IMG/VR virus record: IMGVR_UViG_3300034107_000607
Source of the DNA: an uncultured virus (IMG/VR IMGVR_UViG_3300034107_000607)
Lineage: Duplodnaviria; Heunggongvirae; Uroviricota; Caudoviricetes
Length of the DNA stretch: 64,000 nucleotides
Direction: 5' to 3' (one strand)
The notes under the pieces were generated by a model. That model was not told where the DNA came from and made no database searches. It saw nothing but the letters and a program-made list of their open reading frames with translations. Position numbers and translations under genes: made by a program. Shown piece after piece: positions 9,611-62,010 of the stretch (position 1 is its first letter; the number at the start of each line of letters is the position of its first letter).

Positions 9611-9796
9611 TTATTCAGCACTTTCCTTAGTAACAGGTTCTTGTTGTGATTGATTTTCACGAACAAAATTTGCAATTTTTTCACGTAGTGTTCCTACAGT
9701 TATCAACTCGTTACCTTTGAATGCCCCACGTTCTGTGCAAGCATCAATGATATTTACCATAGTAATCATATCACTTAAATTAATATTTGTTTCCAT
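9611..9796 (-). CDS. Conserved hypothetical protein
   Basis: IIDACTERGAFKGNELITVG motif. Confidence 0.7.
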   Translation of the reverse strand: METNINLSDMITMVNIIDACTERGAFKGNELITVGTLREKIANFVRENQSQQEPVTKESAE

Positions 9797-9798
9797 TA

Positions 9799-13463: not shown

Positions 13464-14107
13464 TTAGTATCCTCATAATGTTGTCTCCATTCATCATATT
13501 CATCTTCTAAAAGAACCCAACGAAGTTTTGTAGATGAATTATCTTTCCGTTTATCCCAAATAATCCACATATATGCAATCATACCGCCAAGTTGCTCATT
13601 TTTATTTATAGCTTCAGGATACCCGGCTCCAAATCTAATACGATCCGAGAGGATAATTATATCACTTGGAACATTTTTTGTAAATAGTTTATTTCGTTTT
13701 TTGCCTTCTAGATATGTCAAACGAACAAATAAAGCGGTCACTGCATATTCGGACACACCCTTTTCTGCTATTTTACGAGGTAAATCCTGAAAATATGGTG
13801 GATTTGTCACAAAAGCATCATAATCAACTTGTTTTGGAAGAGTTAAAACATCTTGTCCAGTTTGAATAGAACATAATTGATCTGGATATTCGTGCATATC
13901 GAATGATTTAACATTAAACCCATTCCGAATTAGTTCAATAGAAATATTACCGCGCCCAGCACATGGTTCAATAATATTCTTCGGTAAATCAACATATTTC
14001 TGAAGTATATATGTTGCTATTGGCGGTGTTGGATAAAGATCATTTTCATTCCGATTTTCATCATCTTTTTTCACACCGACGTATATATCTTTGAGATTTT
14101 TAGCCAT
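13460..14107 (-). CDS. Putative N6-adenine DNA methyltransferase
   Basis: NDLYPTP, EPCAGRG, TNPPY. Confidence 0.75.
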   Translation of the reverse strand: MAKNLKDIYVGVKKDDENRNENDLYPTPPIATYILQKYVDLPKNIIEPCAGRGNISIELIRNGFNVKSFDMHEYPDQLCSIQTGQDVLTLPKQVDYDAFVTNPPYFQDLPRKIAEKGVSEYAVTALFVRLTYLEGKKRNKLFTKNVPSDIIILSDRIRFGAGYPEAINKNEQLGGMIAYMWIIWDKRKDNSSTKLRWVLLEDEYDEWRQHYEDTK

Positions 14108-14591
14108 TCACTGTCCAATCCAATTTATCTGAATTTGTATATGTAATGCCAATGTCACCGACTTCTACAATCATTTGTTTTGAAACTTTATCCCACTTTT
14201 CTGTCCATGGTGTGATATAGACATATGGATCTGGTGACATGACAACTCTTTTAATACCAGCTTGAATTATAGATTTTGTACATTCAGGGCAGACTGGAAG
14301 TCCATAAACATAAATTGTAGCACCTTTTACCGACACACCACTGTGTAGCGCATGCATCAATGAGTTCATTTCTGCGTGCACAATTCTAGGATACTTTTGT
14401 TCACGGTCATTTAATCTCTCTTCGGTATCTTCAATACCTTTTGGAAACCCGTTGTAACCAGTGGCAAGTATTCTGCGCTCGTCATTGACAATGACTGCAC
14501 CAATCTTTGAGCTTGGATCTTTAGACCATGTTGAAATTTCTCGGGCTAATTTCATGAACCGAGCATCCCATTTTGAATTAACTTTTGGCAT
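14100..14591 (-). CDS. cd: dCMP deaminase
   Basis: TGYNGFP, HAEMN, CPEC. Confidence 0.93.
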   Translation of the reverse strand: MPKVNSKWDARFMKLAREISTWSKDPSSKIGAVIVNDERRILATGYNGFPKGIEDTEERLNDREQKYPRIVHAEMNSLMHALHSGVSVKGATIYVYGLPVCPECTKSIIQAGIKRVVMSPDPYVYITPWTEKWDKVSKQMIVEVGDIGITYTNSDKLDWTVNG

Positions 14592-14923
14592 TAATTTTTA
14601 TCCTGGTGGTGAGTCCATTTTAGTTTCTTTTGCCATACATTTTCTGGTTCTTCATTTTCAAGAAAGTCACGTGGCAAGTCACGTGCTTGAACCATGCCAT
14701 AGATAACACCTTGTATGTCTCTTAACTCTTTGATGAGATCACCAAAGTTGGTAGGAATAAAAACACCGTGTTCTTTCGGTATTGTAGGATTACTACTGTC
14801 ATAGCCATGCCGAAGTATTTTTCCTACTACTTGGATTACTTCTGCGCACTCTTCGGCAAGCATAGCAAGCCGTTCTGTTTCTGCTGGTGTTAAGTTATTG
14901 AAATTTTCAGATGTCATAGTCAA
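14591..14923 (-). CDS. MazG-like pyrophosphatase
   Basis: LAEECAEVIQVVGKILRHG. Confidence 0.7.
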   Translation of the reverse strand: MTMTSENFNNLTPAETERLAMLAEECAEVIQVVGKILRHGYDSSNPTIPKEHGVFIPTNFGDLIKELRDIQGVIYGMVQARDLPRDFLENEEPENVWQKKLKWTHHQDKN

Positions 14924-14962
14924 ACCTCACTCATGATATATTTGTCTTTAGGTAAACAACTT

Positions 14963-15038
14963 TATAAATAATAGTGTAGATCACGGAGTACCAGTCCCAT
15001 CTACTCTACGTTGATAATTTTAAAAGGAACGCAGCATG
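14963..15038 (+). promoter_or_regulatory. Late promoter plus structured leader of homing endonuclease
   Basis: TATAAATA followed by hairpin GTAGAT..GGA/TCC..ATCTAC; homologous to 51610-51690 (-). Confidence 0.7.
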
Positions 15039-16070
15039 GATATTTATTCCATTTTGGCAAGTAAGCCGCACAATTCACATTATTTGAATAAGTATATAAC
15101 ATTTATTCAAAAATGTCAACTTAAAAATACTAATTATAATGGTAATATTGAAAAACACCATATTTGCCCGAAAGCAAATGACATGTTTCCAGAATATAAA
15201 TCATTTTTAATTTATCCTTGGAATAAAGCATTTTTAACACATCGCCAACATTTTATTGCACACTTATTACTTTGGAAAGCTTATCCAAAAAGTTATTCTT
15301 GTGTAGATGCAATATGGGGTATGAAATGCAGGAGAAAAACATTTATGAACTCCAGAATTTACGATAAACTTAGAGTAGAAGCAGTAACAAATATTTCTAA
15401 AAGAAACAAAAATAAAGTTGTTGTATATGACAAAAATAATCCAGAGATATATTTTAAATCAAATATAGACGATCACAATTATCTAAACGGCAATTATATT
15501 CCAATTTTAAAAGGTATATCATTAAAGGATGATCATAAACACAAAATTTCAAATACAAGTAAAGGAGTACGCAAAACAACAGCTCATAAAAATAATATAT
15601 CCTCTGGTTTACGAGGTAAAAAGAAAAGCAGTGAGCACACAGAAAAAGTTAGGAAAGCATTAACAGGCAGATTACTTTCGGAAACTCATAAAGAAAATAT
15701 AGGAAAGGGGCAACTTGGTCTAAAAAGGTCTGATGAAACTAGAGAAAAAATGTCTAAATCACAGAAAGGAAAAATAGTATCAAATGAAACTAAAGATAAA
15801 ATTTCCGAAAAAATGTCTGGGATAAATCATCATAAACATAAGTATTTTTATTCAACACCCATAGGAATATTTGATTCTGCATCAAGTTTAATAGATATGG
15901 GTATTTCTCGTGAAAAAATGAAAACATGGTGCATAAAATGTGATAGAAAAATATCATTGAGAGTTTATAGGAATAGTATTTTCTTGCAAACTAATTTTTT
16001 TAATAATATAGTGGGAAAAACCTATAGAGAAATAGGTTTTTCCGTAATTGCGAAAGATCAGATATCATAA
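15036..16070 (+). mobile_element. Free-standing HNH/NUMOD3 homing endonuclease, antisense to the surrounding operon
   Basis: EKHHICPK, LTHRQHFIAHLLL, NUMOD3-like repeats (SETHKENIG, SDETREKMS). Confidence 0.85.
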
Positions 16071-16903
16071 TTGAAATTAATATGTTGTTCTTTCTCTCTT
16101 GGTAGAGGCTCACCATAAGAATTTCTATATTTTTGATTTGTTCTTATAACTTCTTCTAATATAGTAAAGTGGTTTTTTTCTTTTTTTGCATACATAACAA
16201 ATGCAGGTCCGTCTTTTGCAAAACATGCCCCCGCGGCACCTTTGCGACCGTCATGTCCAGGTACCATAGTATGTGAACTGCCTATCCTAGGATCCGTAGT
16301 GATTGCCTTTTGTATAATACTAAAATTAGAACCGTTCTTTTCAATTAAATCAAAAAGTTGGTTGAAAAATAATACCTTTGTCATTAAAAATGAATTCATA
16401 CCATATTTGACAAAACTTGCTTCTTCGGCGGTCATGTGGTAAACAGCACATGGTTTACATGCACTATATCTAGTGTAGATCTTTTCAAGTTTTTCTGTTT
16501 GTTCAGAATCTCCACCGAACACGTGCATGATCGGATTGACAAAATCTTCATTTGCAGACTTTTCGGTCAAAAATTCTGGATTGTAAATGACTCTTGGATC
16601 TTTTGCAAGTTCACCGACAATACTCGGAATGACTGTTGATTTAATCACAATCATACCAGACGTGTATGCAAGCAAATCAGTTACAGTAGAAACTAGAATT
16701 GAAGCATCAATGCTTGCATCTTGCCCCATCGGAGTTGGAACACAAACAAATGACACTTCAACATCAGATTCCATTAAATCAGAGACTTGAGTTCCATATT
16801 TCGGATCAATGATTGTTTTATTACAGTTACCATTCGGAAACCCATAATCTACTGCTGCACCGACAAACCCGTGCCCCACAATAGCCATTCTTAACTTTTT
16901 CAT
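16058..16903 (-). CDS. UDP-glucose/GDP-mannose dehydrogenase-like (short form)
   Basis: GHGFVG, FVCVPTP, IKST, YNPEFL, GACFAKD. Confidence 0.85.
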   Translation of the reverse strand: MKKLRMAIVGHGFVGAAVDYGFPNGNCNKTIIDPKYGTQVSDLMESDVEVSFVCVPTPMGQDASIDASILVSTVTDLLAYTSGMIVIKSTVIPSIVGELAKDPRVIYNPEFLTEKSANEDFVNPIMHVFGGDSEQTEKLEKIYTRYSACKPCAVYHMTAEEASFVKYGMNSFLMTKVLFFNQLFDLIEKNGSNFSIIQKAITTDPRIGSSHTMVPGHDGRKGAAGACFAKDGPAFVMYAKKEKNHFTILEEVIRTNQKYRNSYGEPLPREKEQHINFNYDI

Positions 16904-16904
16904 A

Positions 16905-17762
16905 TTAGTCACACCATCCATTATATTTTAACAATTCGATATATTTAGTTAATTCTTTCTGAGGTTTCCACCCCAATTCTATAGTTTTTTCACTCTTAAC
17001 CTCTGCACTTAGGCGATTACCTTTTCGTTCTGGTAAATATTCAATTTCACCACCAAACATTTCGGCAACTTCTTGAATTGAATACGAATTTGGATTTCCA
17101 ATACCGTATTCGTCGCCTTGTCCACCGAAACCAACAAGAATTAAAGCATCGACAATATCATCAATGTGTGTAAAATTTCTCTGTTGGATACCTGGCATTA
17201 CAATAGGAAGTTTTTTGCCTTGTTTCATTAATGACTTGTATTTAGCAATAAGTGTAGCATATTTTCCGTCTTTGATTTCACGTTTACCATAAACATTATA
17301 GAAATACGTAATAGCATAGTCAATAGAATGCCATGAACAATATTGATTTACAAAATCTGTATTGGATGCTTTCGACCATTGATATGGACTTATAACATCA
17401 ACTTTTGCAAATTTGGTTGATGAACCAGCATAAATTAATTTTGCATTACATTGTTTTACATATTTAAGAACTTCATATGTTCCTACTTTATTAAAATTCC
17501 ATACAAGTTCCATATCATCAAATGATTGTTCTACTCGTGAATATTCACCAAGGTGATAAACATATTCAAAAGTTTCACTGTAAAGTAAAGACAGTATATC
17601 TTCAGTACTTCCGTTAATATAAGTTACACCCGAAATATGATTATCACTTGAGCCAGTAAAATAATTATCAAGTGATGTAACATTATGCCCCAGTGATACA
17701 AGACGTTCACACAGGTGGCTGCCGACAAAACCAGCACCACCTGTGACAAGAATATTATGCAT
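16905..17762 (-). CDS. NAD-dependent nucleotide-sugar epimerase/dehydratase
   Basis: [20 protein letters not shown] (YxxxK), NVYG. Confidence 0.9.
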
Positions 17763-18759
17763 GATTAGAAAGTCTCCCCTTGGGGTATTCATTTAAACTG
17801 AATGTAGGATCTGAAAATGTGTTATTTGACCCATAGTTACGGTATAATTCCATACCATAATTATCTACTTTATTGACTATGTCAACATCTTTTTTCAAGA
17901 TTGGAACATTTTGTCTAGCAGGTTGGCCGAACTTATTTATGATTTTATCAAGGTTTACATGGTGGTGTGCTCTACCATATTTTTCTACAAGTTCAACACA
18001 GTCTGGATGCATTTCATAAAGCATCTTGGACTTATTATATGATGCATCTTCCTGATAGTTGTTATAGATTTCGGTAGTATTACCACCTTTAACCGTACCA
18101 GTCCGGAGTTTCCCACAAAGGAACGAATAGAATAACATAGTGCAAAGACCTTCTTTCAAAACTCTAATTGAAAGATCAACGTCTTCATTATACTTACCGC
18201 GCCACATTACAGGGCAGTCATTATCAATAAGGAAACAAGACATTATGCGTGTATTTAAAATATATGGAGGGTATGCACAATCATCAATTGCAAAGAATTT
18301 GTATTGAAAACCTGAAAGTGCAATATTTTCAAACCGATCAACAAAATCTTCTGCGGCACGGAAAATTGCGGAACCTTTATCTACGCGGTAACGCTTGTTA
18401 TTATGTAGACGATAGAAGTCGAGCATATTATCATCCATAAGCCAATGCCGCTTGAAACCAGTTGCCTTTGAATGTTCCCAACACCAATTTCTAGCAGGTC
18501 CAGAACCTAGCCCATGGTTGCTGAAAGGTAGAGCCAAAACTTTTTCTTTGCCCACTGCATTTACATAGTTATCATATTCTTGTGGTTCAACAGCAAGATA
18601 ATACGGAACACCCATCTTGTCCAGAGTTCTTGCTGTGTGTCTTGATTCCCAGCGGCCTTTCGATATCACATAGATGGGGTATCGAGGATTATCATTCATC
18701 TGTGTCGTCATCTTCACTAATTCCTTCAATTTTATCTTGTTCATATCCTTCTTCAACAT
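17755..18759 (-). CDS. TET-associated glycosyltransferase (TAGT/GREB1-like); true start probably downstream of 18759
   Basis: [38 protein letters not shown]. Confidence 0.75.
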
Positions 18760-28344: not shown

Positions 28345-28710
28345 ATGGAGAATTTTGTAATGACCTATAATCTTTTCATTGATGATGAACGAGTTCCCAT
28401 GGATGTAAAATGGGGACCTTGGGAAGATCAAGCACTTTATCGTGACGGTGACTGGACTATTGCTCGAAACTGGCTTGATGTTCTTGAACTTGTAGTCACA
28501 TTTGGTTTTCCACAAATGATCAGCTTTGACCATGACCTTGGTGACGGCGAAAAGACTGGTTATGAGATTGCACGAAAACTTTGTGATATGATTATGGATG
28601 GTCTTCAGTTACCAGATGATTTTGAGTTCAAGGTTCATTCCAAGAACCCAGTCGGTGCTGAAAATATTCGGGTATACATGAATAACTTTCTGAAACACTA
28701 CGGAGAATAA
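28345..28710 (+). CDS. Cyclic-phosphate-processing receiver-like domain protein
   Basis: LFIDDER, ISFDHDLG, TGY, HSKNPVG. Confidence 0.7.
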   Translation: MENFVMTYNLFIDDERVPMDVKWGPWEDQALYRDGDWTIARNWLDVLELVVTFGFPQMISFDHDLGDGEKTGYEIARKLCDMIMDGLQLPDDFEFKVHSKNPVGAENIRVYMNNFLKHYGE

Positions 28711-31821: not shown

Positions 31822-33078
31822 ATGAAAACACCAACTGTTGAAGAATTTAGATCTGTTTTCCTAGTAGGCGGCGCCGTCCGTGACATGCTGATGGGTCTGG
31901 AACCCAAGGACCGAGACTATGTTGTCGTTGGTTCATCTCCTTCTGACATGCTGGCTGCTGGGTTTTCTCAGGTCGGTGCAGATTTTCCTGTGTTCCTGCA
32001 TCCCGAAACCGGTGATGAATATGCACTGGCTCGGCGGGAGAAAAAGACTGGGACTGGTTACCTGGGCTTTACCTCTGAATTTGGAACTGACGTGACACTG
32101 GAGGAAGACCTGGGACGGCGAGACCTGACTATCAATTCTATGGCATTTGAAGCCGAGGAAGATAACCCCGGCAGTTTCCTGGTTCATGACTTTTTCGGCG
32201 GCAAAGATGATCTGCATGCCAAAGTGCTGCGGCACACTTCTAATGCTTTCGAGGAAGATCCTGTTCGTGTTCTGCGGCTGGCCCGATTCCGTGCTCGTCT
32301 GGGTTCGGAATGGACTGTTGCTCCAGAAACTGTAACTCTGGTTGCTAAAATGGCTAAAGCTGGTGTCCTGAATGAACTGACTGCCGAACGTGTCTGGAAG
32401 GAACTGTCACGGGCAATGGAAGAGGAATTTCCTCGCCTGTTCTTTGATACTCTGCTGGAGTGCGATGCACTGCATGTTCTGTTCCCAGAAGTGTATCGAC
32501 TGAAGACTGCTCTGGAGTCACGCCGTTGGCACCCAGAAGGTGATGCATACGAACACACCATGATTGTTCTGACTCAAGCCGTTCGTAAAGGTTTTGATCT
32601 GCAGACTCGACTGGCATGTCTGGTACATGACTTTGGTAAGGGTCTGACACCACGTGATCAACTGCCAAAGCACTACGGTCACGAAATGTCTGGTGTTCCT
32701 GTTACCAAAAACTTCTGTGACCGCCTGACCGTCCCTTCAAAGATGCGGGATCGAGTGATGAAAACCACTCGGTACCACATGCACATGCACAAACTGGATA
32801 CACTGAATCCAAAGACATTTGTTAATATGTTTATGGATATGGGTGCATTTAATGACCCAGAAGTTGTTTTTCTGCTGTGGTCTGTCGGTGTTTGTGATCA
32901 TAATGGTCGTCTGGGTTCAGAAAATGAGTCTACTGTCCATCTGATGAAACTGCTGGATATTTGGCATAGAGTCAAGTCTGTAAAATTTGCTGATGTTTTT
33001 CCTGACGGAGAAACTAATGTAGAACGGATCAAGGACGGTATGTTTAAAGCACGAGTTCGGGCGGTGAAAGCTGCCTGA
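31822..33078 (+). CDS. cca: Multifunctional CCA-adding tRNA nucleotidyltransferase with HD domain
   Basis: VGGAVRD, DRDYVVVG, EYALAR, RRDLTIN, EDPVRVLR, HDFGKG. Confidence 0.95.
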   Translation: MKTPTVEEFRSVFLVGGAVRDMLMGLEPKDRDYVVVGSSPSDMLAAGFSQVGADFPVFLHPETGDEYALARREKKTGTGYLGFTSEFGTDVTLEEDLGRRDLTINSMAFEAEEDNPGSFLVHDFFGGKDDLHAKVLRHTSNAFEEDPVRVLRLARFRARLGSEWTVAPETVTLVAKMAKAGVLNELTAERVWKELSRAMEEEFPRLFFDTLLECDALHVLFPEVYRLKTALESRRWHPEGDAYEHTMIVLTQAVRKGFDLQTRLACLVHDFGKGLTPRDQLPKHYGHEMSGVPVTKNFCDRLTVPSKMRDRVMKTTRYHMHMHKLDTLNPKTFVNMFMDMGAFNDPEVVFLLWSVGVCDHNGRLGSENESTVHLMKLLDIWHRVKSVKFADVFPDGETNVERIKDGMFKARVRAVKAA

Positions 33079-35812: not shown

Positions 35813-36430
35813 ATGATCCAAATTCAAGGTAAACTTGATCGTGAAGTCTACGTTGCCTGTTCTGGTGGCGTAGACTCTATGGCAGTTGTTGACTTCTTGA
35901 TGAAGAATCATAAAGTCAACCTTATGTTTTTTGACCATGGAACTGAGACTTCTCGTGAAGCTCTTGAGTTTTTGAAAGATAAGTATTTACAAAGTATTGA
36001 ATTTGGTCGTATGAGTCTAGATATTGGCGGTTTGACAAATTCAAAAGCCAAATCAGATTCATGGGAAGAATATTGGAGAACTCAGCGATATGAGTGGTTT
36101 CATTCATATTACCCACATCCAATTATTACTTGTCACCATTTAGATGATTGTGTCGAAACTTGGATTTTTAATTCATTAAATGGTAACGGTAGAATTATTC
36201 CATATTCACATAGGAATGTTATTCGTCCATTTAGACTAAATCAAAAATCCGAATTTACAAACTGGTGCCGAAATAATAATGTCCCTTGGATCGAAGACTC
36301 TTCAAATCAAGATACAAAATATATGCGCAACTTCATCCGTCACGAAATTGTTCCCAAAGCGCTTGTTGTTAACCCAGGCCTTCATAAAGTAATTCGCAAG
36401 AAGGTTTTGGAAGATTGCTGTATAGTATAA
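35813..36430 (+). CDS. tilS: tRNA(Ile)-lysidine synthetase-like (PP-loop domain only)
   Basis: ACSGGVDSM, HHLDD, IRP, WIEDSSN, RNFIR. Confidence 0.85.
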   Translation: MIQIQGKLDREVYVACSGGVDSMAVVDFLMKNHKVNLMFFDHGTETSREALEFLKDKYLQSIEFGRMSLDIGGLTNSKAKSDSWEEYWRTQRYEWFHSYYPHPIITCHHLDDCVETWIFNSLNGNGRIIPYSHRNVIRPFRLNQKSEFTNWCRNNNVPWIEDSSNQDTKYMRNFIRHEIVPKALVVNPGLHKVIRKKVLEDCCIV

Positions 36431-37812: not shown

Positions 37813-39276
37813 ATGGCTACTTTTTCACAAGCAGTTGCAAATCAAAAATCAGCGGAGGTATCTCGTACCGAGAACGGTATGAAGGCATGGGCAACTTCCG
37901 ACTCTAAGGTCCTTGACCTTTTCGGTAAGATCGGTTCAAGCCGTGGTCGTGACCTGACACCTTCGTTCTCCGCTGCACTTGCAGAAGATGAGAACCTAGC
38001 TGTTCGTGTTCTTCTATGGGCACGTGACGTCCGTTCCGGTGCTGGTGAGCGCCAGACCTTCCGTAATCTTCTTCGTTCACTCGAAGCACAGAGCCCAGCA
38101 CTAGCTGGTCGCATCATGCACAAGGTTCCAGAACTTGGCCGTTGGGACGACCTCTTTGCATATCGTGATCCTGCTAACCGCAAAAATGCACTCCGCATGT
38201 TTGCTGACGCACTCATGAATGGTGACGGTCTTGCCGCAAAGTGGGCTCCACGTCTTGCATCAAGCAAGAAGTCAACTACTCCAGGTAAGATGGAGAAGCT
38301 AAAGAACGCAAGCGAACTGCGCAAGTTCATGATGCTCTCTCCAAAGGAGTATCGTCAGATTCTTGTTGGTTCGACTCGTGTTGTTGAGTCTCTGATGTGT
38401 GCCAAGCGCTGGGACGAGATTAACTTCTCGCATGTTCCATCACTTGCTTCTGCCCGTTACCAGAAGGCTTTCGGTAAGAATGCCGCTGATGCTTACTCTG
38501 CTTATATCCGTGAGCTTCAGAAGCCACAGGAAGAGCGTGATCCAAAGGTCAAGATCAATGCTGGTGCAGTTTACCCATACGATGTTGTCAAGTCACTTCG
38601 TCATGGTAACGAGGCTGTTGCTAACGCACAGTTCGATGCTCTGCCAAACTATGTCGGTGACACCAAGATCATGCCAATGGTCGACGTGTCAGGTTCCATG
38701 GGTACTATGCTCGCTGGTGGTATGACTGCCATGGATATTGCCCTTTCACTAGGTCTGTATCTATCTTCCAAGACTTCATCTGACTTCAAGGATATGTTCA
38801 TTACTTTCACCAGTTCTGCAACTATTCAGGTTCTGAAGGGTACACTTTCCCAGAAGATGCGCCAGATGTCAGGTGCTGTTGGTTACGACACCAACCTTAC
38901 CAAGGCTTTCGATAGTCTACTACAGACTGCGAAGAGTGGTAATGTTGCACCAGATAATATGCCAGAATTTATTGCCATCATGAGTGATATGCAATTTAAT
39001 GATGCAGCAATCCGTGGTACTGACGCGACCGCACTAGAAATGGCTCGCCAAAAATATCGTGATGCTGGATATAATTGCCCAAAAATTATCTTCTGGAACC
39101 TAGCTGCTAGGGCAAGTGCAGATCAATCTCCTGTAAAGGTTAATGATCAGGGGGTTGTCATTGTATCAGGGTTTAGCCCATCAATTATGGCAACTGTTCT
39201 AGGTGCAAACCCAGAAGAGTTTACGCCTCAAGCTATGATGATGAAAGTAATCATGGATTCACGATACGACTTTTAA
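37813..39276 (+). CDS. TROVE/Ro60-like vWA protein (DUF2828-like)
   Basis: TENG, WARDVRSGAGER, GRWDDL, AAKWAPR, DVSGSM (MIDAS), SDMQF, IIFWN, SGFS. Confidence 0.8.
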   Translation: MATFSQAVANQKSAEVSRTENGMKAWATSDSKVLDLFGKIGSSRGRDLTPSFSAALAEDENLAVRVLLWARDVRSGAGERQTFRNLLRSLEAQSPALAGRIMHKVPELGRWDDLFAYRDPANRKNALRMFADALMNGDGLAAKWAPRLASSKKSTTPGKMEKLKNASELRKFMMLSPKEYRQILVGSTRVVESLMCAKRWDEINFSHVPSLASARYQKAFGKNAADAYSAYIRELQKPQEERDPKVKINAGAVYPYDVVKSLRHGNEAVANAQFDALPNYVGDTKIMPMVDVSGSMGTMLAGGMTAMDIALSLGLYLSSKTSSDFKDMFITFTSSATIQVLKGTLSQKMRQMSGAVGYDTNLTKAFDSLLQTAKSGNVAPDNMPEFIAIMSDMQFNDAAIRGTDATALEMARQKYRDAGYNCPKIIFWNLAARASADQSPVKVNDQGVVIVSGFSPSIMATVLGANPEEFTPQAMMMKVIMDSRYDF

Positions 39277-43530: not shown

Positions 43531-43753
43531 AATTGTTGACAAACACACAGAATCAGTATAATATTTAAATATACCGAAACGGAGACTGACTGATGAACTT
43601 CTATAAAAAAATTGGACGAAAAGCAGCTGGTTGCTGGGGTCGCCCCGGTAACAAATATGCAAAACGTATGAGTGCCAAGGCTATTCGCCGCCTTTCTAAA
43701 AATTATGAATAAAAGTTAAAAATAATTGTTGACAAACACACAGAATCAGTATA
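43531..43753 (+). repeat. Duplicated 30-bp promoter AATTGTTGACAAACACACAGAATCAGTATA (43531-43560, 43724-43753) flanking a small basic ORF
   Basis: Exact repeat; second copy plus TATAAATA (43759-43766) is upstream of the tRNA leader. Confidence 0.85.
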
Positions 43754-43853
43754 TATTATATAAATAAACCAAATAATGGATGAATACAGCAACTAAAATT
43801 GTTTGATATACAAAACCAAGCTCATCCAGATTAAAACAAAACAGAGGACTAAA

Positions 43854-43913
43854 ATGACTTACTTTATTTGCAAATTTGAGGAATATATGACTTGGGAGGG
43901 TTCCCGAGACTGA
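43854..43913 (+). CDS. Putative attenuator leader peptide MTYFICKFEEYMTWEGSRD
   Basis: SD AGAGGA at 43843-43848; codons match downstream tRNA specificities; overlaps antiterminator strand. Confidence 0.8.
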   Translation: MTYFICKFEEYMTWEGSRD

Positions 43914-43942
43914 TATCTTATGCAAATAAGTATATAGTTTTA

Positions 43943-43979
43943 GAACCCTCCTGGAAAAATCCTCGGAGGGTTTTTTATT
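43943..43979 (+). terminator. Intrinsic terminator (attenuator) before tRNA cluster
   Basis: AACCCTCC...GGAGGGTT stem followed by TTTTATT. Confidence 0.85.
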
Positions 43980-43991
43980 GCTCTTTGACAA
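43979..43991 (+). promoter_or_regulatory. boxA-like antitermination element
   Basis: TGCTCTTTGACA versus rrn boxA consensus TGCTCTTTAACA, just before the first tRNA. Confidence 0.65.
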
Positions 43992-43996: not shown

Positions 43997-44070
43997 GTTC
44001 CTATAGCTCAATGGTAGAGCATTCGCCTGATAAGCGAGAGACCGAGGATCGTTACCTCGTAGGAACACCA
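43997..44070 (+). tRNA. tRNA-Ile(GAU)
   Basis: Cloverleaf, anticodon loop CTGATAA, encoded CCA; atypical T-loop ATCGTTA. Confidence 0.88.
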
Positions 44071-44075
44071 AATAT

Positions 44076-44159
44076 GGGTCGGATGCCACAAGGTGTGGCA
44101 GCGGATTGTAAATCCGTCGGGGAAACCCACGGCAGGTTCGATTCCTGCCCGACCCACCA
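44076..44159 (+). tRNA. tRNA-Tyr(GUA)
   Basis: Loop TTGTAAA, long variable arm, TTCGA, CCA. Confidence 0.93.
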
Positions 44160-44163
44160 AAAT

Positions 44164-44239
44164 GTAGCCCTGGTATAACTGGTGTGTACGCTAGTCTGAA
44201 AAACTAGAGGATGCGGTTCGATCCCGCGGGGCTGCACCA
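44164..44239 (+). tRNA. tRNA-Phe(GAA)
   Basis: Loop CTGAAAA, TTCGA, CCA. Confidence 0.92.
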
Positions 44240-44242
44240 TTA

Positions 44243-44342
44243 TTCTGATGATACACTGGTTAATCCATCATAGAAAAGTAGGTATGCGTATCTGTTGTCC
44301 GACGATAACTTCATAGGGGTAAGGAACAGTGTATCTTCTGAA
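44243..44342 (+). ncRNA. Unknown structured RNA 1 within tRNA cluster
   Basis: Closing stem GATACACTG/CAGTGTATC, non-coding, between two tRNAs. Confidence 0.5.
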
Positions 44343-44346
44343 TAAT

Positions 44347-44423
44347 GGCGCATTGGACTTCTTGGCGAAGGTCGCCGCCCTTTCAAGGCGGAGAAACGGG
44401 TTCGAAACCCGTATGCGCTACCA
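44347..44423 (+). tRNA. tRNA-Glu(UUC)
   Basis: Loop CTTTCAA, TTCGA, CCA. Confidence 0.93.
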
Positions 44424-44431
44424 AAATTTAC

Positions 44432-44517
44432 GGACCGCGTCCTATCATTGGTCAATAGGAACAGGCTCTTAACCTGTCGCGAAAGCTATCTGGGTTCAAT
44501 TCCCAGGCGGTTCACCA
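44432..44517 (+). tRNA. tRNA-Lys(CUU) with extended variable arm
   Basis: ACAGG-CTCTTAA-CCTGT, 12-nt variable region with GAAA loop, CCA. Confidence 0.85.
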
Positions 44518-44525
44518 AACTATAC

Positions 44526-44613
44526 GGTCCAGGTGCTCTCATTGGTCAAGAGCGGTGTCCTTTTAAGTCACTACCGAAAGGTTATAAGGGTTCAATTCCC
44601 TTCTGGATCTCCA
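44526..44613 (+). tRNA. tRNA-Lys(UUU) with extended variable arm
   Basis: GTGTC-CTTTTAA-GTCAC, variable ACC-GAAA-GGT, CCA. Confidence 0.82.
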
Positions 44614-44717
44614 TTAACTTTATGATGCACTAGGCGTATAGGGGTTGCTCCCGAAAACGATAAAACCTTGCGCTGGAATGTTCTCAATAAGAACCCTAGT
44701 GCAGCATTAAGTTAATG
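44612..44717 (+). ncRNA. Unknown structured RNA 2 within tRNA cluster
   Basis: CATTAACTT/AAGTTAATG and TGCACTAGG/CCTAGTGCA stems, internal hairpins. Confidence 0.55.
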
Positions 44718-44722
44718 ATCAT

Positions 44723-44794
44723 GGCGTCTCTAAGTGGTTTAGACGGGTCTCTCATAAGGATCTAGGGTCGGTTCAACTCCGACAGACGCTACCA
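44723..44794 (+). tRNA. tRNA with CAU anticodon (Met or Ile2), shortened D-arm
   Basis: Loop CTCATAA, T-arm GTCGG-TTCAACT-CCGAC, CCA. Confidence 0.75.
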
Positions 44795-44810
44795 ACTATA
44801 AAGGCGAAAA

Positions 44811-44987
44811 TTGGATATTAAATATTTTTCTTCATGGGAATGGCAACCAATAGAATACATGCCAGCTGGATGTTCATATGTTCTTGTAAGAGAAGACGGC
44901 GGAAATACCAGAGAACTGTGTTCTTGCGACTACTGGTGGTTATCAAAGGAAAAGAAAGATCTATACACTACGTTTAGATTTCAATGA
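44811..44987 (+). CDS. Small hypothetical protein (WQPIE motif)
   Basis: Manual ORF, TTG start. Confidence 0.45.
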   Translation: MDIKYFSSWEWQPIEYMPAGCSYVLVREDGGNTRELCSCDYWWLSKEKKDLYTTFRFQ

Positions 44988-45006
44988 TTAATAAATAGTA
45001 AATAAT

Positions 45007-45088
45007 GGCGCCTGGCCAGGACGGTAATGGGTCGGATTGCAAATCCGAAGCACGAAAGTACTCGGTTCGACTCCGAGAGGCGCCTCCA
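45007..45088 (+). tRNA. tRNA-Cys(GCA) with extended variable arm
   Basis: TCGGA-TTGCAAA-TCCGA, U73, variable AC-GAAA-GT, CCA. Confidence 0.9.
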
Positions 45089-45105: not shown

Positions 45106-45444
45106 ATGATAGATAAAGCATTTGAATTGATTATGAAAGCATTTAGTGGTGAACAACTCACCGAGGACGAAAACAAATACTTGCGTGCACGTAATGCTAA
45201 GTATGAGCTTGTTCGATATGTTTACATGGAAAAGATGAAGCACGAAGGTTCGGGTTTAACCAATTTTCAATTCTCTCCTGGCGAGTCATTTATAGACACA
45301 CCGATCATTGATATTGTCAATGAACTTTTAAAAATGAACGAATCCATCAAAAATGGTAACTATGAAGTTGTAGACTTTGGCGATTCAAACCGGAAACACA
45401 ATCCACCACATACTGGAAAAACAAAAAGGACATTGGTAAACTAA
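45106..45444 (+). CDS. Hypothetical protein
   Basis: ATG after tRNA-Cys; the track's upstream extension overlaps the tRNA. Confidence 0.65.
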   Translation: MIDKAFELIMKAFSGEQLTEDENKYLRARNAKYELVRYVYMEKMKHEGSGLTNFQFSPGESFIDTPIIDIVNELLKMNESIKNGNYEVVDFGDSNRKHNPPHTGKTKRTLVN

Positions 45445-46368: not shown

Positions 46369-47133
46369 ATGCATTATAAGAGTATTTTTATATCTGATAT
46401 ACATTTAGGGAGCAGAGGGTGTCAAGCAGATGCTCTCTGCTCTTTTTTGAAAACTAATACATGTAAAAATTTATATCTTGTTGGTGATGTTATAGATGGT
46501 TGGCAACTTCAAAAACGATGGTATTTTCCTCAAAGTCATGCTAATGTGATAAGACGAATTTTAACTGCTGCAAAACGTGGAACAAATGTCTATTATATTC
46601 TAGGAAACCACGATGAAGCTCTTCGAAAGTTTTTACAATTTGATATTGAAGTAGGTAATATCAAGCTTCTAGATAGAATAGATTATACTGGGATTAATGG
46701 CAAAAGATATCTTGTAATACACGGAGACTTCTTTGATACATTAATGGTAAATCACAAATGGTTAATGCATATTGGAGATGTTGCATATAACTTTATGATC
46801 TGGTTTAACATACATTTCAATAAAATACGAAATTTATTGAACCTAGAATATTGGAGCTTAAGTAAATGGCTAAAACAAAACACCAAAGAAGCATTAAATT
46901 TTATTAACAATTTTGAAAATCGTGTATCTCAGTATTGCAAAGAAGAAGGTTATGATGGTGTTATATGTGGGCATATTCACGTAGCAAAGATTAAAACTAT
47001 TGATGAAATTCAATATATGAATTGCGGTGATTGGGTTGAATCCGGAACTGCCTTGGTAGAACACATGGATGGCAGGTTTGAAATAATAGAATATAGGTAT
47101 AATAAAAATGTCGAAGATACTTCTGATTACTGA
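46369..47133 (+). CDS. LpxH/PlcP-like metallophosphoesterase
   Basis: FISDIHLG, LVGDVIDGW, GNHDE, HGD, CGHIH, NCGDWVES. Confidence 0.88.
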   Translation: MHYKSIFISDIHLGSRGCQADALCSFLKTNTCKNLYLVGDVIDGWQLQKRWYFPQSHANVIRRILTAAKRGTNVYYILGNHDEALRKFLQFDIEVGNIKLLDRIDYTGINGKRYLVIHGDFFDTLMVNHKWLMHIGDVAYNFMIWFNIHFNKIRNLLNLEYWSLSKWLKQNTKEALNFINNFENRVSQYCKEEGYDGVICGHIHVAKIKTIDEIQYMNCGDWVESGTALVEHMDGRFEIIEYRYNKNVEDTSDY

Positions 47134-48118: not shown

Positions 48119-48559
48119 ATGCAGATTGAATATATAAAAGGTGACCTGCTTGAAACAAATATCAAGCATATTATTCATGGTTGTAATAGTCATGGTGTGA
48201 TGAGGTCTGGTGTTGCTTATGTACTTCGAGATAAATATCCATCTGCATTTCAAGACTACAATGACTCGTATAATAGTTATGGTCTTGAACTTGGTGCAAT
48301 CGTCGTATCTGTTCAGGAAGATGGAAATGTAATTCACAATGCAATTACCCAGAAAGATTATGGACGTGATCCATCACGTGTTTATGTTTCATATTGGGCA
48401 ATTGCAGAAGTATTCCGTAAAATTAATCAATGGGGTATTAAAGAGATTGCAATGCCAAAAATCGGTGCAGGTCTTGCCAACGGAGATTGGAATGTTATTT
48501 CCGCTATCATTGAGAATACTCTTATTGATACCAAACCTTTTGTCTATGTACTAGAGTAA
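48119..48559 (+). CDS. Macro domain protein
   Basis: KGDL, IIHGCN, IAMPKIGAGLANGDW. Confidence 0.88.
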   Translation: MQIEYIKGDLLETNIKHIIHGCNSHGVMRSGVAYVLRDKYPSAFQDYNDSYNSYGLELGAIVVSVQEDGNVIHNAITQKDYGRDPSRVYVSYWAIAEVFRKINQWGIKEIAMPKIGAGLANGDWNVISAIIENTLIDTKPFVYVLE

Positions 48560-51706: not shown

Positions 51707-52222
51707 ATGAGAAAATATTTGTGCTTCCTTGATATTGATGGAGTCCTCACATCACAGAGAGTGCATAAGACCTATCAAGGCGAATATGGAATGTGGTGTC
51801 AATTCGATCCCATAGCAGTTCAATTTTTTAATTGGATCCATGACACATATCCAGTTGAGTTTGTTCTCATGTCGACTTGGAAAAATGGACTTCGGAATGA
51901 TGATCAAATGACGGAACATTGGGTTCGGTCAGCATTTGCAAATTCTGGGTTCCGGGGCGAGTTTGCAAGTCCTTGGAAAACAGACCCTGATAATTTTGCG
52001 CCAGTAAAAAAGTGGGATCGAGGTAATGAAGTCAAAGATTACCTCGAAACATACGCTACTGATGTAGACGATTTTGTTCTGTTCGATGATAATCGGTATC
52101 GGTTTAATGAAATCCTTGGTAAGAGGCGGCTTGTTCAGACTGATGCAGATAATGGATTATTGCATAAACACATGCTTAACGCTGTTAGTCTGATGGGTAC
52201 TTGGGAGAAAAAGAATGTTTGA
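51707..52222 (+). CDS. HAD-domain protein (RNA-repair-associated type)
   Basis: FLDIDGVL, STW, RGNEV, FVLFDD, GL. Confidence 0.75.
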   Translation: MRKYLCFLDIDGVLTSQRVHKTYQGEYGMWCQFDPIAVQFFNWIHDTYPVEFVLMSTWKNGLRNDDQMTEHWVRSAFANSGFRGEFASPWKTDPDNFAPVKKWDRGNEVKDYLETYATDVDDFVLFDDNRYRFNEILGKRRLVQTDADNGLLHKHMLNAVSLMGTWEKKNV

Positions 52223-53365: not shown

Positions 53366-53619
53366 TGTCACTAAGATTAGATTTTAGGTTCCTAGACAAA
53401 GACGGTAAGTTTGTATCCGAAGGAACCATTTCATCATCAAACTATACAGATGATTTACAAAATTTGAACTTTCTTCATAAAAAGTTGAAAGAACATTTGA
53501 CTCATCCTATGGTTATTCATAGAACAGCAATAAAATATGCAGTACCAGTCGATGTTAAATCATATATGTTTGATACCGATACGTTTGAACTTTTACCAAA
53601 TAGGTTTGAAAAGAAATGA
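53365..53619 (+). CDS. Hypothetical protein
   Basis: ORF track. Confidence 0.55.
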   Translation: MSLRLDFRFLDKDGKFVSEGTISSSNYTDDLQNLNFLHKKLKEHLTHPMVIHRTAIKYAVPVDVKSYMFDTDTFELLPNRFEKK

Positions 53620-53960
53620 AACAAATTATTGTAATGAGAAAAGACCTGAATATGCGTTTGGGAAAACAAATAGCACAAGGTGCTCATGCAAGCATGAAAG
53701 CTACGCTTGAAAATCTTGAACATCCGAACGTGAAGGAATGGCTATCAGGTCCATTCACCAAAATTGCCGTTTCGGTAAATTCAGAAGAAGAACTATTTGA
53801 AATTATGAATAAAGCTAAAGAAGCAGGTCTTATTACTGCACTCATCACTGATGCAGGAAGAACCGAATTTAATAATGTGCCGACGAATACTTGCATCGCA
53901 GTAGGTCCTGCCTCTCATGAGGAACTACTTCCTATTACTGGTTCTCTGAAACTACTATAG
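53616..53960 (+). CDS. Peptidyl-tRNA hydrolase Pth2
   Basis: RKDLNM, GKQIAQGAHA, DAGRTEF, TCIAVGP, TGSLKLL. Confidence 0.93.
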   Translation: MKQIIVMRKDLNMRLGKQIAQGAHASMKATLENLEHPNVKEWLSGPFTKIAVSVNSEEELFEIMNKAKEAGLITALITDAGRTEFNNVPTNTCIAVGPASHEELLPITGSLKLL

Positions 53961-61113: not shown

Positions 61114-62010
61114 ATGGCATCACGTGTACAACTAATGAAACAGAAGGGACTTATCAGTCCGCCAAGGTGGCTACCTCAAAACATTCACTATGAAGTGATC
61201 ACCGGTTCTGTCAGCTATGCTGTAAGTTCAGACACTTCTGATATGGATGTTGTTGGTTTTTGTATGCCACCAAAAGATGACATCTTCCCGCACCTTCGTG
61301 GTGAGATTCCTGGTTTTGGTTTACAACACAAACGATTTGAATTATGGCAGGAACATCACATCATGGATAATGAATCTCGTCAAGAATACGACTTCAGTAT
61401 CTATTCAATCGTGAAGTTTTTTCAACTTGCAATGGAAAATAATCCGAATATGGTTGACATTCTGTTTACTCCACAACGGTGTGTTTTGTATTGCTCTACT
61501 GTTGCTCAGATTGTCCGTGATAACCGCAAACTATTCTTGACAAAGAATTCGTATCACAAGTTCCGCGGATATGCTTATGCTCAATTGCACAAGATCGGCA
61601 CGAAGTCAAATAGTTCCAATCCTAAGCGCCAAGCTGACATCGAAAAACACGGCATGGATCTTAAGTTTGCTTATCATGTTATTCGTCTTGCTCTTGAGGG
61701 TGAACAGATCTTGATGGAGCATGATCTTGACATTGAACGAAATGCTGAAGTCCTGAAAGCAGTTCGTCGTGGTGACTGGAGTGAAGAGAAACTCCGGAGC
61801 TGGTTTGATGCTAAGGAGAAACATCTTGAAGAACTTTATACCAAGTCAACCCTTCGGCATGTGCCGGACGAAGATGCTATCAAGGATCTTCTTATGACTT
61901 GTCTAGAACAGCACTATGGTTCTCTGGATCAAGCTGTCAAACGCGATGTTCCGGTAGAACGGCTTGTTGCTGAACTAAAGTCCGTCCTTGAAAAGTATGA
62001 AGGTAGGTAA
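61114..62010 (+). CDS. Pol-beta-superfamily nucleotidyltransferase
   Basis: GSVSY..SDMDVVG, NNPN, GYAYAQL, KFAYHVIRL. Confidence 0.85.
   Translation: MASRVQLMKQKGLISPPRWLPQNIHYEVITGSVSYAVSSDTSDMDVVGFCMPPKDDIFPHLRGEIPGFGLQHKRFELWQEHHIMDNESRQEYDFSIYSIVKFFQLAMENNPNMVDILFTPQRCVLYCSTVAQIVRDNRKLFLTKNSYHKFRGYAYAQLHKIGTKSNSSNPKRQADIEKHGMDLKFAYHVIRLALEGEQILMEHDLDIERNAEVLKAVRRGDWSEEKLRSWFDAKEKHLEELYTKSTLRHVPDEDAIKDLLMTCLEQHYGSLDQAVKRDVPVERLVAELKSVLEKYEGR

Follow-up and report, generated by a model that had tools for sequence, protein, structure and literature searches.

The tRNA gene cluster of an uncultured T4-like phage (IMG/VR record IMGVR_UViG_3300034107_000607; Duplodnaviria, Heunggongvirae, Uroviricota, Caudoviricetes) was analysed within a stretch of 64,000 nucleotides (nt), referred to here as the window, and three of its genes, tRNA-Lys(CUU), tRNA-Lys(UUU) and tRNA-Cys(GCA), were found to carry variable regions of 12, 14 and 12 nt that contain a small hairpin. 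Cellular tRNA-Lys and tRNA-Cys normally have variable loops of 4-5 nt, as a preliminary description of this DNA rightly stated. The three genes very probably encode real, cognate, working tRNAs with a true extra helix. That description had treated the trait as peculiar to this cluster; instead, the arm recurs widely among phages, is much more frequent in viral DNA than in cellular DNA, and is specific to certain anticodons, not to amino acids. With the present genes, the set of phage tRNAs that bear it is extended to both Lys isoacceptors. Its suggested function, as a counter-defence device against nucleases that cut tRNAs, is given about an even chance of being correct.

The cluster consists of eight tRNA genes called by ARAGORN on the + strand at 43997-45088, in the order Ile(GAU), Tyr(GUA), Phe(GAA), Glu(UUC), Lys(CUU), Lys(UUU), a tRNA with a CAU anticodon, and Cys(GCA). 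Variable regions were delimited both from the ARAGORN bracket output and by a hand parse of the raw sequence, and the agreement of the two upheld the lengths and the GAAA-capped mini-hairpins (GC/GC, ACC/GGT and AC/GT) given in the preliminary description. The tRNA-Lys(CUU) gene (44432..44517, + strand, 86 nt, A73, CCA encoded), supported by ARAGORN, folding and family covariation, has its variable arm at 44478..44489 on the same strand (CGCGAAAGCTAT, 12 nt, parsed as C, GC-GAAA-GC and TAT), together with a D-stem of 4-5 base pairs (bp), the D-loop TCATTGGTCAA, the anticodon stem ACAGG/CCTGT and the letters UAACCU at positions 36-41. The tRNA-Lys(UUU) gene (44526..44613, + strand, 88 nt, U73, CCA encoded), with the same three lines of support, has a 14-nt arm at 44572..44585, likewise on the + strand (TACCGAAAGGTTAT, parsed as T, ACC-GAAA-GGT and TAT), the layout of which is the common phage design of 1 nt, a 3-bp stem, GAAA and a tail of 3-4 nt; positions 36-41 read UAAGUC. 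The D-loop common to both Lys genes, the U-U mismatch of tRNA-Lys(UUU), which falls at U30·U40, and its U73 had all been described before and are all present. The tRNA-Cys(GCA) gene (45007..45088, + strand, 82 nt, U73, CCA encoded), supported by ARAGORN and by the Rfam model RF00005 at 46.2 bits, has a 3-bp D-stem with the 9-nt loop GGACGGTAA and a + strand variable arm at 45049..45060 (AGCACGAAAGTA, 12 nt, parsed as AGC, AC-GAAA-GT and A). In each of the three arms a stem of 2-3 bp is thus closed by C-GAAA-G. The GAAA-capped hairpins are therefore present as described, but the cap is not special to the three odd genes, being found also on the canonical tRNA-Tyr and tRNA-Leu(CAA) of the same phage; as the arm of the ordinary class II tRNA-Tyr(GUA) at 44076..44159 (+ strand) reads GGG-GAAA-CCC, GAAA is evidently the usual cap in this phage.

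Minimum-energy folding returned a cloverleaf with the mini-hairpin for both window Lys genes. In the corresponding fold of the window Cys gene the 2-bp arm stem is too weak to show, and it is covariation in relatives that supports this stem. Refolding into tRNAs with normal short variable loops, which the preliminary description had named as grounds for abandoning the idea, was not observed: among the minimum-energy folds examined for the three genes, none takes up the extra variable-region bases, and the general tRNA model of Rfam aligns these bases as an insertion in the variable region. All three genes have a 7-bp acceptor stem, 5-bp anticodon and T stems, a 7-nt anticodon loop with U33 and a T-loop of the form TTCRAnn, and all three have a variable region of at least 10 nt that forms a stem-loop, as in class II tRNAs. 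Their anticodons and discriminators (CUU, UUU and GCA with A73, U73 and U73, respectively) place them outside the Leu, Ser, Tyr and Sec tRNAs. Two structural points count against the explanation proposed below. The stems are short, two of the three being only 2 bp, and both Lys genes fall under the Rfam cut-offs. tRNA-Cys exceeds the 29-bit gathering cut-off, tRNA-Lys(UUU) scores 25.4 bits, and tRNA-Lys(CUU), which matches the Rfam tRNA-Sec model best, scores 25.9 bits; the low scores of the Lys genes arise because the odd D-loop and the insertion cost score.

Comparison with relatives indicated that the helices are under constraint. In the Lys family of six sequences, 95.2% of cells pair and 13 of 21 pairs show changes on both sides, a result reached by 0 of 500 shuffles, and the pairing signal collapses when partner columns are slid. 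The arm is kept in both Lys paralogues of the window, with the second stem pair differing by a compensatory swap of G-C to C-G. For tRNA-Cys, a 282-kb contig with a 77% identical DUF2828 protein supplied an 82-nt gene with the 12-nt arm CC-AAAA-GG, and a Cys scan added three more members; in this family of five, pairing holds in 96.5% of cells and covariation is seen in 17 of 23 pairs, while the arm helix is 100% paired, two of its three pairs being compensatory (compensatory changes occur in loci L017, L359, L365 and L370). When wider classes of arm-bearing genes were considered, the first two pairs outside the closing C-G were paired in 31/31 and 29/31 Lys genes and in 47/47 and 33/47 Asn genes, with at least four pair types in use. 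Close relatives, represented by contigs of public runs that are 90-97% identical, keep the arm lengths; in one of them the Lys(CUU) arm has changed from GAAA to GCAA at 44482, which is still GNRA and leaves the length unaltered. As a separate observation, contigs of two public runs join tRNA-Glu straight to tRNA-Lys(UUU), skipping 93 bases at 44427-44521, and some close relatives are without the Lys(CUU) gene.

The origin of the arms was addressed through pairwise identities, computed without the variable region and with a masked anticodon. Four further phage contigs, recovered by scanning for the unusual D-loop of the Lys genes, have a tRNA-Lys(UUU) with the same D-loop but a variable loop of 6 nt. 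Window tRNA-Lys(CUU) is 0.76-0.82 identical to these four genes, against a background of about 0.6 for unrelated tRNAs. As the nearest Lys relatives have 6-nt loops, the Lys arm is a lineage-specific insertion into a class I Lys body. That the window tRNA-Cys arose from tRNA-Tyr through the change of a single anticodon base (GUA to GCA) was also considered, the D-stems and anticodon arms of the two window genes being alike by eye. It was rejected, since the nearest gene is the arm-bearing tRNA-Cys of L017 (0.67) and tRNA-Tyr lies at the background of about 0.6.

The amino-acid identity of the three tRNAs could be judged from their discriminators. The tRNA-Lys identity set of the E. coli type consists of anticodon bases U35 and U36 together with A73, and that of tRNA-Cys consists of the GCA anticodon and U73. 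Window tRNA-Lys(CUU) has U35, U36 and A73, and window tRNA-Cys has GCA and U73, its 15:48 tertiary pair not being assignable with the longer variable region. Window tRNA-Lys(UUU) has U73 instead of the usual A73, a feature common to a third of arm-bearing phage Lys genes (A73 in 22/34 and U73 in 12/34; short-loop phage Lys genes have U73 in 6/46). Elsewhere among the arm-bearing phage genes, U73 is found in all 43 unique Cys genes and G73 in 45 of the 55 Asn genes, 38 of the 55 also having U1. The window genes have an acceptor/T-stem layout of 7/5, and arm-bearing stems are 2-4 bp long. Taken together, the cognate discriminators, the 7/5 layout and the short stems fit cognate charging and disfavour mischarging of a Leu, Ser or Tyr type, which on these sequence features appears unlikely.

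The distribution of the arm was established by pattern scans of viral and cellular DNA. With a first viral pattern (an anticodon loop ending in TTAA, then C-GAAA-G, then a T-arm), at least 120 stretches were found, and the matches listed included 74 Leu(UAA), 10 Leu(AAG), 1 Leu(CAA), 15 Asn and 11 Lys genes, two of the last from the present phage. A second viral pattern, which admitted any anticodon of the form N-U-(C/G/U), returned at least 119 stretches; among the matches listed, 117 seeds were called, namely 68 Asn, 34 Lys, 7 Gln, 5 Glu, 2 His and 1 Ser (a register shift), and none of these 117 was Asp. For Cys, a complete viral scan recovered 75 stretches; 62 arm-bearing Cys genes lay in them, 43 of these being unique, and the arms measured 12-17 nt. 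When the same Lys/Asn pattern was applied to one genome per species for 185,579 bacterial and archaeal species, only 62 stretches were recovered, which puts the window arms beyond a chance occurrence. The 52 called included 22 ordinary Leu genes in a shifted register, 20 Lys genes (three counted twice, in overlapping loci) and 6 Asn genes; 23 of the 26 Lys and Asn calls lay in loci with 3-18 tRNAs per 5 kb, which look like prophage or phage DNA. Related T4-like contigs have long variable regions in Thr(UGU) (11 nt), Asn(GUU) (12 and 16 nt), Met(CAU) (14 nt) and Ile(UAU) (23-25 nt). The design is also present in cultured phages, an arm-bearing Asn gene having matches in 579 records of cultured phages, of which 512 cover at least 80% of the gene length. 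These include T5-like phages of Salmonella and E. coli and T4-like phages of Klebsiella, and among the matches listed the gene is labelled as a plain tRNA-Asn or left unannotated.

Full-text searches on long variable arms in phage or viral tRNAs did not turn up any account of the arm; supplementary figures S3 and S10 of the PARIS and OLD studies cited below may show the arm uncommented. A review of non-canonical tRNAs (PMC7609411) has 0 occurrences of the word 'phage', Mukai et al. 2017 (PMC5389517) cover 8/4 and 9/3 tRNAs only, and no description of the arm was found in the available parts of a 2026 review on how tRNA modifications figure in viral replication or of a paper on bacterial Schlafen proteins. 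Two further departures from the class rule were noted in the scanned loci. The UAU (Ile AUA) tRNAs with 23-25 nt arms are conserved in several related phages, have A73 and lie at L012 8854-8944, L013 10200-10291, L020 605-699 and L021 1222-1316; in L020 and L021 the gene adjoins a tRNA-Ser(GCU). These UAU tRNAs recall the nematode nev-tRNA-Ile(UAU) and allo-tRNA(UAU). The reverse change was seen in L011, L012, L013, L021, L022, L400 (phage Bas33) and L401 (phage Bas32), where tRNAs with the Leu anticodons UAA, CAA, UAG and GAG and with A73 have loops of 5-6 nt; in the loci of the second viral scan, short loops were present in 42 of 87 unique tRNAs with Leu anticodons.

The anticodon dependence of the trait was quantified among the 812 unique tRNAs with class I anticodons that accompanied, but were not themselves, the seeds of the second viral scan, a long arm being defined as a variable region of at least 9 nt. 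Long arms were found in 58 of the 812. They were present in Thr(UGU) (11/39), Asn(GUU) (9/32), Ile(UAU) (2/9), Cys (4/19), Met(CAU) (9/68) and Lys(UUU) (3/24), and in none of the tRNAs for Asp (0/43), Gly (UCC and GCC together, 0/50), Phe (0/27) or Ala(UGC) (0/43). Readers of ANN codons had long arms in 39 of 294 cases versus 19 of 518 for the rest (p=7e-7), and within Thr the UGU isoacceptor, at 11/39, contrasted with the other isoacceptors (GGU and CGU), at 0/33 (p=6e-4); these p-values are indicative only and overstate independence, as the loci were chosen for an arm-bearing tRNA of Lys or Asn type and the sequences are related; the counts, conditioned in this way, are not true frequencies, which takes some weight from the argument that follows. 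Given that the same synthetase serves all tRNA-Thr, synthetase tolerance cannot explain the Thr contrast, and pressure from an enzyme that reads the anticodon can.

A tRNA-cutting nuclease has been described in the PARIS defence system. According to the available parts of PMC12409363, this nuclease, AriB, targets Lys(UUU), Thr(UGU) and Asn(GUU) and, to a minor extent, Thr(CGU). The cut falls in every case at 40|41, in the anticodon stem's 3' strand, and the authors model the enzyme as a dimer whose second monomer touches positions 16-17 of the D-loop. The arm-enriched set covers all of the published main targets (Lys-UUU, Thr-UGU and Asn-GUU), and the variable region lies a few nt 3' of the 40|41 cut, toward the elbow where the D-loop sits. 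The host-type AriB site reads U36AAUC|A41, and the UAAUC portion is kept in 25 of 34 arm-bearing Lys genes versus 18 of 46 short-loop Lys genes (p=0.003, with the same overstated independence).

A natural experiment in cultured phages was offered by the tRNA regions of the coliphages T5, Bas32 (IrisVonRoten), Bas33 (HildyBeyeler) and Bas34 (SelmaRatti), with six-letter strings again denoting positions 36-41. T5 has short loops on the three tRNAs compared: Lys(UUU) with a 5-nt loop and UAAACC, Thr(UGU) with a 4-nt loop and UAAGCA, and Asn(GUU) with a 5-nt loop and UAAGUU. Bas32 combines a 5-nt-loop Lys(UUU) (UAAUCC) and a 4-nt-loop Thr(UGU) (UAAGCA) with an Asn(GUU) that bears a 13-nt arm (UAAUCC), and Bas33, which has no Lys(UUU), bears 15-nt arms on both Thr(UGU) (UAAUCA) and Asn(GUU) (UAAUCC). 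In Bas34, Lys(UUU) has a 5-nt loop (UAAGCA), Thr(UGU) is absent, and an Asn(GUU) annotated at 77 nt is not called by ARAGORN. Among these T5-like coliphages, the short-loop Thr and Asn genes called by ARAGORN are mutated at position 39, whereas the arm-bearing Asn of Bas32 and Asn and Thr of Bas33 keep UAAUC; the arm and the site mutation thus look, from the sequences, like complementary escape routes. The site sequence of Bas33 Thr(UGU) is identical to the E. coli cleavage site quoted in PMC12409363. Bas34 was at one point considered a counter-example to a role of the arm and was dropped as such, because its annotated Asn has no arm, so that the requirement of this phage for T5 Asn is no argument against the arm. 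A natural twin pair was noted in the same phages: the tRNA-His genes of Bas34 (L405 14522-14612) and Bas32 (L401 14153-14229) are identical in their 5' half through the anticodon arm, the former having a 19-nt variable region (91 nt in total) and the latter one of 5 nt (77 nt).

Published assays bear on the arm-bearing Thr(UGU). In the parts of PMC12409363 that were available, Bas33 escapes PARIS when only the T5 Lys(UUU) is supplied, and T7 needs both Lys and Thr. In a study of P2 OLD (bioRxiv 10.64898/2026.07.10.737580), likewise available in part, Thr(UGU) of Bas33, T4, Bas32 and HK446 gave strong counter-defence, that of T5 gave partial rescue and that of E. coli gave none. The Bas33 results imply that the Thr(UGU) of this phage, which bears an arm and has its site intact, functions in translation and withstands two TOPRIM tRNases in vivo, and we infer that the arm is the cause of this resistance.

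A mechanism can be proposed in which the three window genes produce working, cognately charged tRNAs with a helix of 2-3 bp built into an otherwise isotype-typical body. The helix would jut out of the core between the anticodon stem's 3' strand and the D-loop or elbow, and would sterically exclude nucleases or toxins that grip a class I tRNA on this side, for example the TOPRIM nucleases PARIS AriB, with its cut at 40|41 and contact to D-loop positions 16-17, and P2 OLD. The arm-bearing tRNA would remain acceptable to the synthetase, to EF-Tu and to the ribosome, as tRNAs for Leu, Ser and Tyr are, and the phage copies would keep Lys and Cys codons readable once the host tRNAs had been destroyed. 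An extension of this mechanism is somewhat less probable than an even chance: the variable-region helix may offer phage tRNAs a general, shape-based escape from tRNA-cutting immune nucleases (AriB, OLD and others, including enzymes directed at Cys and at Met- or Ile-CAU), in place of point mutations at the cut site.

The support for counter-defence is circumstantial, coming from the target-like set of isoacceptors and the published Bas33 rescue data, and this is as far as the suggestion of the preliminary description that the remodelled tRNAs resist cleavage can be carried: it is the favoured one of its options, with an anticodon-specific set that overlaps the AriB targets and a Bas33 Thr(UGU) that combines an arm with an intact site. 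The setting is also in keeping with it, the window being rich in tRNA genes and in genes of RNA repair and tRNA care (cREC, a CCA-adding enzyme, HAD_SAK_2, PTH2 and RlaP, described below) and containing the only Lys and Cys tRNAs found in the roughly 80 kb of phage sequence examined. Several observations nevertheless weigh against a counter-defence function. Both window Lys genes already lack the AriB site, tRNA-Lys(UUU) having UAAGUC and tRNA-Lys(CUU) UAACCU, and both have a remodelled D-loop, so the arm is not needed to explain escape from an AriB-like enzyme; these genes may escape by several routes at once, or the arm may be directed at another enzyme. None of Cys, Met-CAU and Ile-UAU is among the reported AriB targets. 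The UAAUC contrast seen for Lys is not significant for Asn (28/55 vs 10/23) or Thr (4/11 vs 7/28). In the OLD study, the short-loop Thr(UGU) of Bas32, T4 and HK446 were also strongly protective (bioRxiv 10.64898/2026.07.10.737580, available parts), so that resistance can be had with no arm at all. Finally, the word 'variable' has 0 occurrences in the accessible text of the PARIS and OLD papers (PMC12409363; bioRxiv 10.64898/2026.07.10.737580), where the arm is neither tested nor mentioned.

The same observations could arise if the arm were a functionless insertion that fast-evolving phage tRNAs gain, as a stable hairpin, wherever the fold allows extra length, its placement reflecting only the tolerance of synthetases and modification enzymes. 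This is rather unlikely, although it has a good deal in its favour. Arms are gained or lost between close relatives, as in the Lys family (6 versus 12-14 nt), in Asn of T5 versus Bas32 and Bas33, and in His of Bas32 versus Bas34; the stems are short and the loops vary (GAAA, GCAA, GTAA and AAAA); and the reverse change, in the short-loop tRNAs with Leu anticodons, points to a general plasticity. Neutral tolerance would, however, not be expected to separate Thr-UGU from the other Thr isoacceptors served by the same synthetase, nor to maintain the helix by compensatory changes, nor to make the trait far commoner in viral than in cellular DNA, and it leaves aside the preference of arm-bearing Lys genes to keep the nuclease site sequence. 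Alternatively, a GNRA-capped arm might be a handle by which a phage protein for processing, repair, modification, RNA binding or a synthetase-like function recognises its tRNAs, or a mark of 'self' while host tRNAs are being degraded. The window does encode candidates (the CCA-adding enzyme, the DUF2828/DUF7788 'RNA-binding' protein, the PP-loop ATPase, HAD_SAK_2, RlaP, cREC and PTH2), and the C/G-GAAA cap is common to all four long arms of the cluster. This explanation is nonetheless improbable, as no such enzyme adjoins the three genes (the open reading frame at 45106-45444 has no family match), arm sequences and loops differ widely between phages, and similar caps are seen on the phage's own canonical tRNAs for Leu, Ser and Tyr; moreover, Bas33 Thr(UGU) expressed from a plasmid works alone in E. 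coli, according to the available part of the OLD study (bioRxiv 10.64898/2026.07.10.737580).

Two further options had been listed in the preliminary description, and neither is favoured by the present data. If the RNAs were decoys or sponges, they would take no part in translation and would instead bind and occupy a nuclease or toxin that targets tRNAs. The authors of the AriB study raise competition by viral tRNAs as a possibility (PMC12409363, available parts), and many arm-bearing Lys genes do keep the nuclease site sequence. A decoy function is nevertheless very unlikely for genes that are the only Lys and Cys tRNAs found in the phage and in which full cloverleaf covariation, the encoding of CCA and discriminators of the cognate type are in keeping with translation. 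Across the wider sample, the same locus held a short-loop twin in no more than 5 of 35 cases for Lys and 15 of 75 for Asn, and phage Thr(UGU) left the host tRNA unprotected from degradation by OLD (bioRxiv 10.64898/2026.07.10.737580, available parts). Even less probable is a switch of identity, in which the arm and the U73 found in both tRNA-Lys(UUU) and tRNA-Cys would recruit SerRS, TyrRS or LeuRS, with a different amino acid then being inserted at AAA/AAG or UGU/UGC codons. Precedents exist in the nev-tRNAs (PMC3333845) and in allo-tRNAs, where a long arm with G73 or U73 suggests serylation (PMC5389517; both sources available in part), and the U73 of window tRNA-Lys(UUU) is, as noted, found in 12 of 34 arm-bearing phage Lys genes. 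Several features of the genes themselves speak for the opposite conclusion: the discriminators follow their own isotype (U73 in Cys, mostly G73 in Asn and A73 in window Lys(CUU)), the acceptor/T layout is 7/5 and not 8/4 or 9/3, pairwise comparison gives a Lys and Cys ancestry and not one from Tyr, Leu or Ser, and no other Lys or Cys tRNA was found in the phage. In addition, arm stems of 2-3 bp are too short for recognition by SerRS.

Counter-defence by phage tRNAs has precedents with which the window genes can be compared. The T5 tRNAs for Lys-UUU, Thr-UGU and Asn-GUU, which act against AriB, and phage Thr(UGU), which acts against P2 OLD (PMC12409363; PMC11464382; bioRxiv 10.64898/2026.07.10.737580; available parts), are, like the window genes, phage copies of nuclease-targeted tRNAs, and both they and the window Lys genes, which have no UAAUC|A, differ from the host in regions that the nuclease contacts (anticodon stem positions 39-41 and the D-loop). 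The T5 type of escape, as described there, relies on point substitutions (U39A, A41C and U16C) in a normal class I body, whereas the window genes have gained a whole helix; in the same sources Cys is not a reported target, and the window has an arm-bearing Cys. Mycobacteriophage tRNAs (PMC10264068, in part) follow the same idea of nuclease-insensitive replacements, with changes in the anticodon loop and not an added arm. In shape, the window genes resemble canonical class II tRNAs (Leu, Ser and Tyr), which also have a variable region of more than 10 nt with a stem-loop, and the tRNA-Tyr of the same phages has a similar layout (a 3-bp stem, a 4-nt loop and a 3' tail of 3-4 nt). Unlike these, however, they have the anticodons and discriminators of Lys and Cys, two of their stems are only 2 bp, the Lys D-arm has 4-5 bp with an 11-nt loop, and their kinship to tRNA-Tyr does not rise above the background of about 0.6. 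Long arms on anticodons other than those for Leu, Ser and Tyr, including Cys, are also known from selC* tRNA-Cys and allo-tRNAs, which were mined from genomes and metagenomes, some of them from phages (PMC5389517; PMC7609411). These have an 8/4 or 9/3 layout and long D- and anticodon stems like those of tRNA-Sec (PMC5389517), whereas the window genes are 7/5 with ordinary stems, the window tRNA-Cys having a D-stem of 3 bp and an anticodon stem of 5 bp. Nematode nev-tRNAs (PMC3333845; PMC4300185; both in part) likewise place a class II shape on class I anticodons, but they are Leu-type bodies charged with leucine, and the bodies and discriminators of the window genes are cognate.

Enzymes that cut tRNAs are a major arm of bacterial immunity and phage tRNAs are a countermeasure, the escape of which has so far been explained by point substitutions only. 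If the extra helix does confer escape, it would serve as a simple sequence mark of counter-defence tRNAs in any phage genome, and arm-bearing isoacceptors would mark the host tRNAs attacked in uncultured systems, in this case Lys and Cys in a lake bacterium. It would also explain why the class I/class II rule is broken systematically in phages and almost never in cells, and Bas32 and Bas33 versus T5 would be a ready coliphage test bed. If the arm is neutral, it is a useful but ordinary catalogue entry. The textbook class rule is also corrected, and an annotation blind spot becomes apparent: among the matches listed, the arm-bearing Asn gene is labelled plainly or not at all, and the Lys genes fall below the threshold of the general tRNA model.

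The remaining members of the cluster are ordinary in their variable regions. The genes for tRNA-Ile(GAU) (43997-44070), tRNA-Phe(GAA) (44164-44239) and tRNA-Glu(UUC) (44347-44423), all on the + strand, have 4-nt variable loops, as does the tRNA with a CAU anticodon (44723..44794, + strand), the D-arm of which is irregular and which scores 25.8 bits with Rfam, below the cut-off. This tRNA also lacks a normal 8-9 linker. As a PP-loop ATPase of 205 amino acids, from a family that includes lysidine synthase, is encoded 8 kb upstream (35813-36430), the gene may be an AUA-reading tRNA-Ile2 instead of tRNA-Met. The best sigma-70-like promoter match upstream of the cluster lies at 43729..43757 on the + strand (TTGACA, a 17-nt spacer and TATATT; 11/12) and is a consensus match only, the scan having found 7 sites versus 5.2 expected. 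Just upstream of tRNA-Ile, at 43896-43990, a long hairpin is followed by a GC-rich stem with a T-run, which resembles a terminator, though it was not listed under the rule of the scan. Two gaps within the cluster, at 44240-44346 (107 nt) and 44614-44722 (109 nt), can form long hairpins with paired ends (-27.8 and -32.5 kcal/mol), both contain ATAGGGGT, and they resemble the 'stable RNAs of unknown function' annotated within the tRNA region of T5. Short contigs from a size-fractionated RNA library lie on 44250-44303, one of them ending in adapter sequence. The RNA-library contigs X21-X23 match only tRNA-sized pieces and come from relatives that are 90-97% identical; their use as evidence of expression was rejected, as contigs cannot show transcription and the conservation of tRNA genes explains the pattern equally well.

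The phage itself has a low GC content (about 36% in the window) and is T4-like, with genes for a gp43-type polymerase, gp41, gp44/45/62, gp46/47, UvsY, RegA, topoisomerase II and baseplate proteins. It was recovered on three IMG/VR contigs in which the three odd tRNA genes are identical, and among the sequences compared here G001, L002, L006 and L009 are all from this phage. No close cultured relative was found: the tRNA region matched single conserved tRNAs only, and the 14 kb upstream gave two 40-bp matches. The stretch was found in 20 lake-water DNA runs, which may include the source sample; these runs were used solely to call the phage a lake-water phage, and uncovered parts of the stretch were not interpreted. 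Just past the 3' end of the window, locus L010 contains a second, larger cluster with 26 tRNAs called by ARAGORN, all of the class expected from their anticodons, and neither these calls nor the extra tRNA-like matches in L010 include a Lys or Cys tRNA. In the roughly 80 kb of the phage examined, the three odd genes are thus the only tRNAs for these two amino acids. The second cluster also includes a tRNA-Trp(CCA) at 4888-4962 that was missed by ARAGORN, a 103-nt match at 10568-10675 (41.3 bits) with normal acceptor and T arms, an aberrant middle and a large insertion in the region of the anticodon arm, and an 82-nt tRNA-like element at 9781-9862 in which the acceptor and T arms are normal and the D/anticodon layout is not recognisable.

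The window is dense in genes of RNA repair and tRNA care. Together with the PP-loop ATPase already mentioned, these and their neighbours encode a cyclic-phosphate-processing receiver domain (cREC, 28345-28710), a CCA-adding enzyme with an HD domain (31822-33078), the DUF2828/DUF7788 'RNA-binding' protein (37813-39276), a metallophosphoesterase (46369-47133), a macro domain (48119-48559), HAD_SAK_2 (51707-52222), the peptidyl-tRNA hydrolase PTH2 (53616-53960) and RlaP (61114-62010). No RNA ligase was seen in the window, and no synthetase family was found in the open reading frames that flank the tRNAs, including the next one downstream. At some distance from the cluster, the region 12390-18759 encodes a TET-associated glycosyltransferase (17755-18759), a UDP-glucose dehydrogenase-like gene, an epimerase/dehydratase, a dCMP deaminase and a second glycosyltransferase, which together suggest a sugar hypermodification of the phage DNA.

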